Origin: an uncultured Gammaproteobacteria bacterium
GTDB taxonomy: Bacteria; Patescibacteriota; Microgenomatia; Daviesbacterales; UBA10151
Direction: 5' to 3'
NCBI GenBank assembly: GCA_964394855.1
Contig: CAYMZD010000002.1
Coordinates: 1 to 58,574 of the forward strand
DNA length: 58,574 nt
Shown: in pieces, positions 6,023 through 39,594 of the stretch
How positions within the stretch are numbered: the first letter of the stretch is position 1
Layout: each line of letters starts with the position of its first letter
The notes under the pieces: generated by a model
The model's database searches: none
Told to the model about the DNA's origin: nothing
The model's input: only the letters and a program-made list of their open reading frames with translations
Made by a program: the position numbers and the translations under genes

Positions 6023-6072
6023 TGGCGAAACGTAATAATTCGCCTTTGGCGGATTAAACGTTTCAGCAACGT
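6023..6072. repeat. 50-bp palindromic direct repeat, copy 1
   Basis: TGGCGAAACGTAATAATTCGCCTTTGGCGGATTAAACGTTTCAGCAACGT, identical to 6457-6506. Confidence 0.95.
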
Positions 6073-6456: not shown

Positions 6457-6506
6457 TGGCGAAACGTAATAATTCGCCTTTGGCGGATTAAACGTTTCAG
6501 CAACGT
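6457..6506. repeat. 50-bp palindromic direct repeat, copy 2
   Basis: Identical to 6023-6072; followed by a further AACGT-rich imperfect hairpin at 6501-6549. Confidence 0.95.
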
Positions 6507-38530: not shown

Positions 38531-38550
38531 CCCTTCAACTTCGCTCAGGG
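38531..38550. repeat. Short palindrome (CCTGAGC..CGAAGG family) abutting the tsaD stop
   Basis: CCCTTCAACTTCGCTCAGGG; related to 43634-43652 and 50667-50685. Confidence 0.7.
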
Positions 38551-39594
38551 CTAGTATGCCAGGGATAAGTTGGGATTGGCTTGTAATTTTAAAGGATCCT
38601 TAAGTGGTTTCCCCCAAAAAGCCGCTGCAGCTATCATGGCCGCATTATCGGTACATAAATAAGGGGGTGGAACATGTAGTTTAACCCTTAATTCTAAATT
38701 CTTAATTCTTAATTCTAAATCAGAAACTAGTTTCTGATTTGCAGCTACTCCTCCTGCCACCATAATTTGTTCAACATGATAAGTCTGGGTTGCTCGAATA
38801 GTTTTTTCCACCAGCACATCCACTATGGCCTGTTCAATAGAGGTAGCTAAGTTGCATTTCACCTTTGAGGTGTAGCTGCTTTTTTTCGCCTCGAATGTGT
38901 GTATTAGATTAGCCACGGCTGTTTTTAATCCGGAAAAAGAAAAATCCCAGCCAAAGGCTGGTCGTCCTTTGGACGAAATCATGGGTCGGGGAAGGTCAAA
39001 GGCCCCAGGATCCCCATTTTGGGCTAGTTTAGAAATCTCTGGACCACCAGGATAGGGTAATCCCAAAAGCCTGGCGCATTTATCAAAACACTCACCAGCT
39101 GCATCATCTCTGGTTCCCCCAAGGTATTTATATTTGCCATGATCCTGAAATAAGACCAAATCAGTATGGCCCCCGGAAACCAAAAGGCCAATGCAGGGAA
39201 ATTGTGGTGTTACACTTTGAGCGATCCAATTAGCATAAAAATGTCCAATTAAATGATTTACAGGGATTAATGGTTTCTGCCATACCAATCTTAAAGTTTT
39301 GGCAGTTTCCACTCCCACCAGGAGTGATCCAATCAGCCCTGGGCCATAGGCTACTGCAATAGCATCCAGTCCGGTAGGACTGCACTGAGCCTGTTGAAGT
39401 GTTTCCTCAATCACTGGAATAATAGATTTAATCTGTTCCCGGGCTGCTTGCTCGGGAATAACCCCACCATATTTAGCTTGTAGGGAAGCACTTGAAGCCA
39501 CCACATTGGATAAAATTTGTATTCGGCCGTTTTTCTGTTGTAAAACAGCCGCCCCGGTTTCATCACATGTGGTTTCAATACCCAGAATTATCAT
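38551..39594 (-). CDS. tsaD: tRNA threonylcarbamoyladenosine transferase subunit
   Basis: GIETTCDETG, GPGL.GSL, VNHLIGH, VSGGHT, DDAAGE.FDK, FSFSGLKT, CTDNAAMIA. Confidence 0.97.
   Translation of the reverse strand: MIILGIETTCDETGAAVLQQKNGRIQILSNVVASSASLQAKYGGVIPEQAAREQIKSIIPVIEETLQQAQCSPTGLDAIAVAYGPGLIGSLLVGVETAKTLRLVWQKPLIPVNHLIGHFYANWIAQSVTPQFPCIGLLVSGGHTDLVLFQDHGKYKYLGGTRDDAAGECFDKCARLLGLPYPGGPEISKLAQNGDPGAFDLPRPMISSKGRPAFGWDFSFSGLKTAVANLIHTFEAKKSSYTSKVKCNLATSIEQAIVDVLVEKTIRATQTYHVEQIMVAGGVAANQKLVSDLELRIKNLELRVKLHVPPPYLCTDNAAMIAAAAFWGKPLKDPLKLQANPNLSLAY
38682..38721. repeat. Heptamer tandem repeat inside tsaD
   Basis: (T/A)AATTCT units in tandem, encoding LELRIKNLELRV. Confidence 0.8.
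38947..38976. repeat. Intragenic twin-hairpin element in tsaD
   Basis: CCAGCC-AAA-GGCTGG followed by TCGTCC-TTT-GGACGA; 30 bp, in frame. Confidence 0.85.

Follow-up and report, generated by a model that had tools for sequence, protein, structure and literature searches.

Repeat-derived stretches in the tsaD gene of a Microgenomates-group bacterium and a 30-nt twin-hairpin family of its class

The gene tsaD was analysed in a 58,574-nt stretch of DNA (the window) that opens contig C2 (C2:1-58574) in the assembly of an uncultured Microgenomates-group bacterium (764 kb, 12 contigs, ~39% G+C; hereafter the host genome, G000, whose contigs are numbered C1, C2 and so on, while G and L numbers denote other genomes and loci). 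The gene looks functional, and three of its surface-loop regions have probably been written by three different DNA repeat families that were acquired at different times. The youngest contribution, a 30-nt twin hairpin, recurs in protein genes, in an RNase P RNA gene and in tRNA-like sequences, and its repeat-family membership, polarity of insertion, distribution, stem covariation and site preference were read directly from the genomes compared. A first-pass annotation had proposed up to three repeat-derived segments in tsaD. All were recovered where it had placed them, give or take a few bases, and for each a dispersed family of DNA repeats was identified to which it belongs. The gene and its segments are:

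38551-39594, minus strand: coding sequence of tsaD, 347 aa including all three repeat-derived stretches (open reading frame (ORF) call and TIGR03723).
38947-38976, minus strand: segment 1, 30-nt twin hairpin, codons 207-216 (SSKGRPAFGW), coding strand TCGTCC-AAA-GGACGA / CCAGCC-TTT-GGCTGG.
38860-38902, minus strand: segment 2, decayed copy of a ~41-nt hairpin doublet, HTFEAKKSSYTSKVK (alignment to an intact member and to tsaD of relatives).
38687-38720, minus strand: segment 3, tandem array of heptanucleotides that runs (TWAGAAT)n / GAATTAA on the coding strand and is read DLELRIKNLELR (Tandem Repeats Finder, TRF).

The twin hairpin in tsaD and in the RNase P RNA gene

Judged by profile, alignment and predicted structure, the ORF is a bona fide TsaD, the tRNA N6-adenosine threonylcarbamoyltransferase of tRNA modification, and the gene is intact and functional-looking. 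It scored 388.1 bits against the TIGR03723 TsaD profile (cut-off 296.1), with residues 3-326 covered, and its best matches in PDB are TsaD chains (3ZET, E 1e-77; 4YDU, E 1e-75). The AlphaFold model, built on the orthologue alignment, has a mean predicted local distance difference test (pLDDT) score of 93.5 and a predicted template modelling (pTM) score of 0.91. H114, H118 and D316, which we take to be the metal-binding residues of the TsaD family, are invariant in 28 aligned TsaD (that of the host genome plus the 27 orthologues of the first alignment, drawn from its own family and class), as are GPG 84-86 and SGGH 140-143. As a separate observation, the tsaD of relatives encodes up to 461 aa, with in-frame inserts in four or five loops (L016, L017, L025, L026, L029, L031, L034, L141, L142). 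These loops lie at about query residues 70-75, at about residue 127, at segment 2 and in the C-terminal region, and some of the inserts read LDSRLRGND, IPANAGL or LPRHPAGVKP, which are peptides typical of translated palindromic repeats.

Segment 1 consists of two abutting hairpins, CCAGCCAAAGGCTGG (38947-38961) and TCGTCCTTTGGACGA (38962-38976), in both of which a 3-nt loop closes a perfect 6-bp stem, so that the 30-bp twin hairpin noted earlier directly before DFSFSGLKT is borne out. As single-stranded DNA it folds at -11.1 kcal/mol (z = -4.75), and none of 200 shuffles folded equally well. The twin hairpin takes up exactly ten codons, TCG...TGG, immediately 5′ of DFSFSGLKT; in the AlphaFold model the SSKGRPAFGW stretch is coil, where pLDDT dips to 79-84. 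All 27 orthologues of the first alignment are five residues shorter at this place (S[KDG]-----[DN][FL]DFSFSGLKT), and the TsaD of E. coli and Salmonella likewise leave a 5-residue gap.

The same junction is filled in two other genomes. One belongs to a different genus of the same family (G226; PRPMLKDF-SSKGRPAYGW-DFSFSGLKT), and the other, from another family, carries a variant (G152; TCCGCC...GGCTGG, read ...SNDF-SAKGGPASGW-DFSFSGLKA) as a clean gain of ten residues. By contrast, the congeners of G226 (G187, G159, G144 and G277) have an empty site, PRPMIDSKDF/DFSFSGLKT or equivalent. Thus the twin hairpin is polymorphic within one genus, and the tsaD junction was hit at least twice. The net gain of five residues in the tsaD of the host genome is best read as the insertion of 30 nt between GAYTTT and GAYTTT (DF/DF), after which the host lineage would have lost five upstream codons. 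A target-site duplication was considered for the GAYTTT on either side and ruled out, as DFDF is native sequence. Among the three segments of tsaD, only segment 1 is lineage-specific.

An exact 32-nt copy of the twin hairpin is present once more in the host genome, inside the RNase P RNA gene rnpB (C2:165026-165057). cmscan recovered this gene with 102.9 bits (cut-off 100) and a 55-nt insert against 15 model positions. When aligned with 15 relatives, it shows native P8/P9-like hairpins, followed by exactly 30 extra nt between CTAGTT and AGAGC, and the junction is empty in 13 of the 15. In G021 (L062) and G014 (L064) the same junction holds another insert of ~45 nt that contains CCTGAGCGAAGTCGAAGG / CTCAGGGTAGCCTGAGCGAAGTCGAAGG (alignment columns 147-195); sharing of the junction suggests that it is a permissive or preferred insertion site. 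The copy was also considered as native P8/P9 helices, which the alignment of 16 RNAs ruled out, since the native hairpins lie upstream and the 30 nt are cleanly extra.

Spread of the twin-hairpin family and how it may move

Beyond the host genome, the exact 30-mer was found at 13 loci in other genome assemblies, the titles of which name Woesebacteria, Blackburnbacteria, Daviesbacteria, a Patescibacteria bacterium, several metagenome-assembled genomes labelled Gammaproteobacteria and two unclassified bins, and in 18 metagenome contigs. The 30 nt are invariant across the copies, and the flanks are unrelated save at orthologous loci. A degenerate pattern that leaves four stem pairs free, TCNNCCAWAGGNNGANCNGCCTNTGGCNGN, had matches in 46 of the 301 class genomes searched, drawn from 40 of 235 genera and with 1-10 matches in each, while the reversed pattern gave 0 matches in every genome. 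Across a hand-compiled list of 53 distinct variants, the three free stem pairs counted (pairs with the 30th base were left out) are Watson-Crick in 49, 46 and 47, respectively, against 19-24 expected if the columns were independent.

The variants share one architecture: a unit of the type TCNNCC-AAA-GGNNGA (with an AAA or ATA loop) is followed by the same type inverted, with a TYT loop. In this the twin hairpin resembles a minimal doublet of inverted units like that of REPINs (inverted pairs of repetitive extragenic palindromic (REP) sequences). Both units directly abut, usually with different stems, and no long REPIN hairpin is formed. The stems are modular, a small set of stem types being recombined among the variants. 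The host genome has four perfect GC-rich twin hairpins, and all its other perfect twins are AT-rich and of low complexity (GC <=0.09); Markov-2 shuffles of the genome contained 2-3 twins each, as counts for which composition was not recorded. Further members in the host genome are TCCGCCAAAGGCGGACCAGCCTCTGGCTGG at C2:95754, within a 295-aa ORF (SAKGGPASGWD), and one at C8:10463, within a 507-aa ORF.

Nearly all exact copies that were examined lie inside long ORFs, in either orientation. In the main variant all six frames are free of stops, and five of these were seen in ORFs (SSKGRPAFGW, RPKDDQPLAG, VQRTTSLWL, PAKGWSSFGR and QPKAGRPLD). The host proteins include TsaD, PBP1, two GT1 glycosyltransferases, a helicase-nuclease of the UvrD/AddA type, RNase Y, a 2-hydroxyacid dehydrogenase and leucyl-tRNA synthetase. 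Over 47 distinct sites the flanks are biased, with T at positions -3, -2 and -1 in 25, 36 and 35 sites, respectively, a purine at +1 in 38 and A at +2 in 34 (consensus TTT/RA), and no clear target duplication was seen among them. Four copies are positioned in the D-arm or T-loop of a tRNA-like sequence (L083:752-781, L103:1501-1530, L122:319-348 and L126:1500-1529). Two of these hosts, a second tRNA-Val(CAC) and a tRNA-Gln(CUG), are degenerate and have an intact gene for the same tRNA alongside, and the other two are apparent 5′ fragments of tRNAs interrupted in the D-loop; the idea of functional tRNAs with inserts was rejected, as the inspected cases are partial or degenerate. Elsewhere in the window, a 50-nt palindrome of a GIY-YIG/tRNA cassette (6023-6072 and 6457-6506) has the centre TTCGCC-TTT-GGCGGA, which is of the twin-hairpin unit type; this match to the arms may be coincidence or a link to the cassette.

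We favour the view that the twin hairpin is a non-autonomous element that would be mobile, or copied, at the DNA level. Its sharp boundaries, unrelated flanks, TTT/RA junctions and occurrence in both orientations in protein genes, in RNase P RNA and in tRNA pseudo-copies all point this way. Its persistence within genes would be favoured by its length of exactly ten codons, by the absence of stops from all six frames of the main variant, by a commonest frame rich in Ser, Gly and Pro, and by the loop location of the surviving copies. We infer that the inserts are neutral or selfish, and the modes of movement set out below are candidates.

Several observations weigh against this view. The net change in tsaD is +15 nt, not +30, and the secondary deletion is deduced from G226 and G187 only. 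The copy number is low (1-10 per genome), and no target-site duplication is demonstrable. No RAYT-like gene (for REP-associated tyrosine transposase) was found by tblastn with both host-genome proteins in the fetched flanks of 31 element loci, and the near-complete genomes G270 and G101 carry twin-hairpin matches with zero matches to Y1_Tnp. Moreover, between species, orthologous copies share 97-100% identity and their flanks ~70-82%; as the copies are more conserved than the flanks, a simple ancient neutral insertion does not explain them. This excess conservation suggests that preferred sites are hit repeatedly, that copies convert one another, or that the sequence is under selection.

One candidate for the machinery is a RAYT-like HUH/Y1 transposase. 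On this account the twin hairpin would be a miniature of REP/REPIN type, or one derived from IS200/IS605 like the PATE elements, that is moved as single-stranded DNA, with the 5′ TT/TTT as its target or cleavage motif; we regard this as possible, if on the unlikely side. An element built of hairpins, without evident duplication and with a T-rich motif on its 5′ side, is in keeping with it, and the host genome does contain two RAYT-like ORFs (C1:79987-80652 and C1:14321-13668) with HUH (NHFHFL) and YIHLNP motifs. The first of them (222 aa) has the hairpin GCACACATCCAAGGTGTG on both sides (region C1:79929-80699), and ORFs resembling Y1_Tnp occur in 34 of 41 genomes of the clade. On the other hand, the repeat that flanks this gene, CACACATCCAAGGTGTG, is of a different family from the twin hairpin, which also lacks a GTAG or CGTC tag, and the RAYT-like proteins reach E 1e-13 and 51 bits against NF047646, under its 80-bit cut-off. 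In ten genomes that each had three or more twin-hairpin matches, a search with PF01797 found no Y1 gene adjoining the twin hairpins and, in two of the ten, G270 and G101, no match at all. On these results a link between a RAYT gene and the twin hairpin is a hypothesis. Two ORFs, of 549 and 574 aa (C1:66216 and C3:146006), also contain in-frame hairpins, CACACCTCCAGGGTGTG, that are related to those around the RAYT-like gene.

Alternatively, the copies could be made by templated repair or template switching, a microhomology-primed gene conversion at sites that resemble the ends of the element (TCC-AAA-G ... TTT-G). The net +15 nt in tsaD would be in line with this, as would the likeness of the ancestral codons, TCy AAA GAy TTT, to stretches of the element. 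Ongoing conversion would also be expected to leave orthologous copies more alike than their flanks, and different variants at the same tsaD junction in each lineage, together with the modular stems, agree with it. Yet rnpB and the tsaD of G152 show a clean +30 nt at an empty site unlike the element, and G226 keeps the upstream KDF codons, which argues for simple insertion followed by deletion in the host lineage; we consider conversion as the source of the copies decidedly unlikely. Unlikely too, though less firmly so, is the more far-reaching proposal that an active, sequence-specific process in Microgenomates-group bacteria writes and re-writes a 10-codon twin-hairpin cassette at favoured TTT/GA junctions of essential genes and structural RNAs. 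If true, it would keep the copies near-identical across species while the gene diverges and would bring repeated hits by variants at one tsaD codon junction, and its enzyme need not be a RAYT-like transposase.

Finally, the twin hairpin might be a selected functional module, such as a binding site in RNA or DNA, a signal for RNA stability or processing, or a useful peptide loop. Its nucleotide conservation above that of the flanks, its strong stem covariation and its presence in a transcribed structural RNA (rnpB), where relatives have other inserts, would be accounted for. However, a module under selection is hard to reconcile with both orientations, at least five reading frames and unrelated proteins, with degenerate tRNA pseudo-copies, and with an element that most orthologues of each host gene lack, that is polymorphic even within a genus and that numbers 1-10 copies per genome, which makes this explanation very unlikely.

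The older segments of tsaD and other repeats

The weaker, degenerate pair of the first-pass annotation is present as CACCTTTGAGGTG (38860-38872) and CGCCTCGAATGTGTG (38888-38902), which fold weakly (-5.4 kcal/mol, z = -2.95) and represent the decayed ~41-nt doublet of segment 2. On the coding strand the segment runs CACACATTCGAGGCG-AAAAAAAGCAGCTA-CACCTCAAAGGTG; the second hairpin, CACCTCAAAGGTG, is intact, and the first, CACACATTCGAGGCG, is broken by substitutions. It aligns with a doublet family of the form CACCTCSGAGGTG-A7(T)GCGATTA-CACCTCGGAGGTG, of which the host genome has an intact member within a 209-aa ORF (C4:64794-64834; CACCTCCGAGGTGAAAAAAATGCGATTACACCTCGGAGGTG) and related doublets at C3:19551 and C3:20368. 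At the same site of tsaD, G014, G187 and G226 carry a much better-preserved doublet (for example CACACCTTCGAGGTGAAAAAAAGCGATTACACCTCGGAGGTG), and G008 has a variant with a shorter spacer. The doublet was inserted before the split of the host lineage, G014, G187 and G226. Since G187 carries segment 2 but its segment-1 site is empty, segment 2 is the older of these two. We picture segment 2 as an insertion common to several genera that would since have decayed under selection at the protein level only. It is located at a helix-loop-helix junction of the AlphaFold model, in a loop that is hypervariable in length across the family and that heptamer arrays occupy in several relatives, such as (CAGAATT)4 in L007.

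For segment 3, a heptamer array had been described as a third repeat-derived segment, and the array is real. TRF reported period 7 with 4.4 copies (38690-38720), and GAATTAA arrays occur at four further loci of the host genome (C3:16835, C4:45007, C4:47858 and C4:49015), of which the first three lie inside long ORFs and read ELRIKN; the unit is also present in 11 of 40 relatives. Under one criterion, the host genome has 6 arrays of period 7 against 0.2 in shuffles, and 1, 0, 0 and 0 arrays of periods 5, 8, 10 and 11, respectively. Segment 3 aligns without gaps to near relatives and is thus not an insertion relative to them. More generally, all three segments open gaps against the TsaD of E. 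coli and Salmonella (+5, +5 and +2 aa for segments 1, 2 and 3), contrary to the ungapped alignment with typical TsaD proteins that the annotation had named as its refutation, whereas against the nearest relatives segment 3 does not.

The orthologous codons of other genomes are themselves period-7 arrays, built of other units: TWAGAAT in the host genome, TGAAAAT in L007, TAACAAT in L032, CTAGAGT in L008, TTACAGK in L016 and CAATTAT in L011. A lag of 7 gives the best match in the host gene and in the majority of orthologues (30 of the 42 rows analysed, with two genomes entered twice), with a mean match of 0.49 against 0.20-0.35 at other lags. As positions 7 nt apart differ in codon position, this periodicity belongs to the DNA and does not reflect a constraint on the protein. 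It agrees with an old microsatellite that is homogenised lineage by lineage and is viable only in 21-nt (7-codon) states. Segment 3 would accordingly be the oldest of the three, a heptanucleotide microsatellite held at the same position since before the family diverged and homogenised in each lineage by slippage or conversion, with three units making 7 codons and the frame kept.

Units of this kind are not confined to tsaD. (TGAAAAT)n was found at ~20 loci in G012 and ~6 in G015, and at none in the host genome. Two of the reversed controls have limits of their own: that for GAATTAAGAATTAAG is uninformative because the pattern is the same when reversed, and that for (TGAAAAT)3, namely (TAAAAGT)3, itself matches many loci. 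With 2 mismatches permitted, the latter had as many as 26 matches in one genome (G004, G018, G026 and others), and TAAAAGT arrays may be another abundant heptamer family of the class. Other in-frame heptamer arrays of the host genome lie in ORFs of 199-809 aa (C1:55998, C1:95322, C4:49096, C5:15847, C4:71969 and C5:13438), with the units ACTACNN (LPTTDY / LLTTNY) and GACAATK (IDNGQLT).

That the three segments are ordinary loop-length variation of TsaD, with a hairpin or tandem look that is coincidental, is scarcely credible. All of them do lie in length-variable loops, and the ungapped alignment of segment 3 with near relatives would suit such a reading. Against it stand exact or near-exact copies of each segment elsewhere in the host and other genomes, the shuffle and reversed-pattern controls, which speak against chance, and the lag-7 periodicity, which cannot stem from protein-level selection. 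The suggestion that tsaD is a special sink for repeats did not survive, since the same families are found in many other genes of the host genome and of its relatives.

Two further features adjoin the segments or the gene:

38717-38740, no strand assigned: perfect 24-nt palindrome, AAATCAGAAACTAGTTTCTGATTT (NQKLVSD), adjoining the heptamer array.
38532-38549, minus strand: family B motif, CCTGAGCGAAGTTGAAGG, lying downstream of the TAG stop codon (38551-38553) at a distance of one base.

The palindrome is unique in the host genome and folds well (z = -4.5). L007 has most of its codons, with 2 mismatches, and it is probably not a repeat copy. The family B motif, CCTGAGC-N(2-9)-GAAGG, has nine copies in the host genome. 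The annotation had described it as a palindrome abutting the stop; it is indeed a dispersed repeat one base away, though not a palindrome or hairpin, as it folds no better than shuffles (z = -0.05), and its candidacy as a hairpin was rejected on that ground. A closely related motif makes up the rnpB inserts of G021 and G014.

Other repeats were noticed in passing. A second hairpin family, (Y)CCCGATTWAATCGGG(R), has ~13-16 copies in the host genome, some inside the 16S and 23S rRNA genes and others within long ORFs, where they are read in frame (DPDLIG / NPDLIGV). Loci of the family are C4:70683-70699 (16S rRNA), C4:69464, C4:77631, C7:873 and C7:1284 (23S rRNA), and, in ORFs, C1:151895, C1:176473, C1:194523, C4:31379 and C4:33615; in the relatives G011 and G014 the tip of P3 in RNase P RNA is made of this hairpin. 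The contig ends C1:218063-218117 and C5:1-76 consist of a 25-nt tandem repeat (TTATTCGAAGAAAAGCTTTGCTTA...), and the assembly breaks there probably fall in a longer tandem array. Several other contig ends have common 55-nt overlaps, which suggests joins of the assembly graph.

Significance and comparison with known systems

What is new is the 30-nt twin-hairpin family with its behaviour, while the kind of phenomenon is known. The new behaviour comprises the identical copy in rnpB, the six open frames, the covarying stems, the TTT/RA preference, the repeated hits at one junction and conservation beyond that of the flanks. A literature search returned no description of such elements in Candidate Phyla Radiation (CPR)/Patescibacteria, nor of RAYT or heptanucleotide repeats there, which is weak evidence of absence. 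To our knowledge, the twin hairpin, at 30 nt, with a main variant free of stops in six frames and with modular, covarying stems, is the most compact element of its kind. Even the smallest and most streamlined bacterial genomes would thus tolerate selfish or slippage-derived DNA in essential genes and catalytic RNAs, and filled and empty alleles within one genus offer a good case for learning how hairpin repeats move and why they are conserved. There are practical consequences as well. Such inserts inflate or fragment the marker alignments of CPR phylogenomics (TsaD, aminoacyl-tRNA synthetases, RNase P and rRNA), and they depress covariance-model scores, as for the RNase P RNA of the host genome, at ~103 bits against a cut-off of 100.

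The nearest parallel is found in the Rickettsia palindromic elements (RPEs), described, in accounts known to us through PMC3733652, as in-frame palindromic inserts in housekeeping genes of Rickettsia (Ogata et al. 2002; Claverie & Ogata 2003). RPE-1 is longer than the REP-type RPE-4 and RPE-6 (PMC3733652). Compared by description, both systems place a palindromic repeat in frame within a conserved gene of a reduced genome, where it is translated, lies in surface regions and is absent from orthologues. RPEs are, however, specific to Rickettsia, whereas the twin hairpin consists of 30 nt in two abutting triloop hairpins and occurs in at least 40 genera of a CPR class, and the two would not be expected to resemble each other in sequence. 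RPE-1 measures ~100-150 nt, a length that the 30-nt twin hairpin does not reach. Such inserts in CPR genomes imply that the RPEs of Rickettsia, as the precedent studied most, are not an oddity of one genus.

REP and REPIN sequences and their RAYTs offer a second comparison. Intragenic REPs and REP dimers are known from several phyla, and the dimers lengthen the protein by 20-30 residues (Di Nocera et al. 2013, PMC3733652). Alike are the short hairpins (20-40 nt), sometimes intragenic, and the presence here of a RAYT-like gene with hairpin flanks; the inverted pairs that REPs often form may have a counterpart in the two abutting units of the twin hairpin. The twin hairpin differs in its very low copy number, in that the examined copies are mostly intragenic and do not flank a RAYT, and in the absence of the GTAG/CGTC end tag, for its flank consensus is TTT/RA and CGTC appears only inside the stems of some variants.

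As for the heptamers, Mrazek and colleagues reportedly described heptanucleotide long simple-sequence repeats (LSSRs) of prokaryotes in 2007, and the STRRs (short repetitive sequences repeated in tandem) lie mostly in intergenic DNA. STRR heptanucleotide repeats also occur inside the RNase P RNA gene of heterocystous cyanobacteria (Vioque 1997, as reported in PMC2858038). The arrays described here share with STRRs and LSSRs the tandem 7-nt unit, the spread over several loci within a genome and a frequency above chance at three or more copies, and the cyanobacteria provide a precedent for repeats in rnpB. Unlike STRRs, they have 3-5 units, stand in frame in essential genes and hold the same position of the protein over many genera with lineage-specific units. 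The poly-psi domain of NeuO in E. coli K1 is a coding heptanucleotide repeat in which three units make one 7-residue peptide repeat, and it serves phase variation. With tsaD it shares heptamers in a coding region and three units for seven residues, while NeuO is accessory and phase-variable and tsaD is essential.

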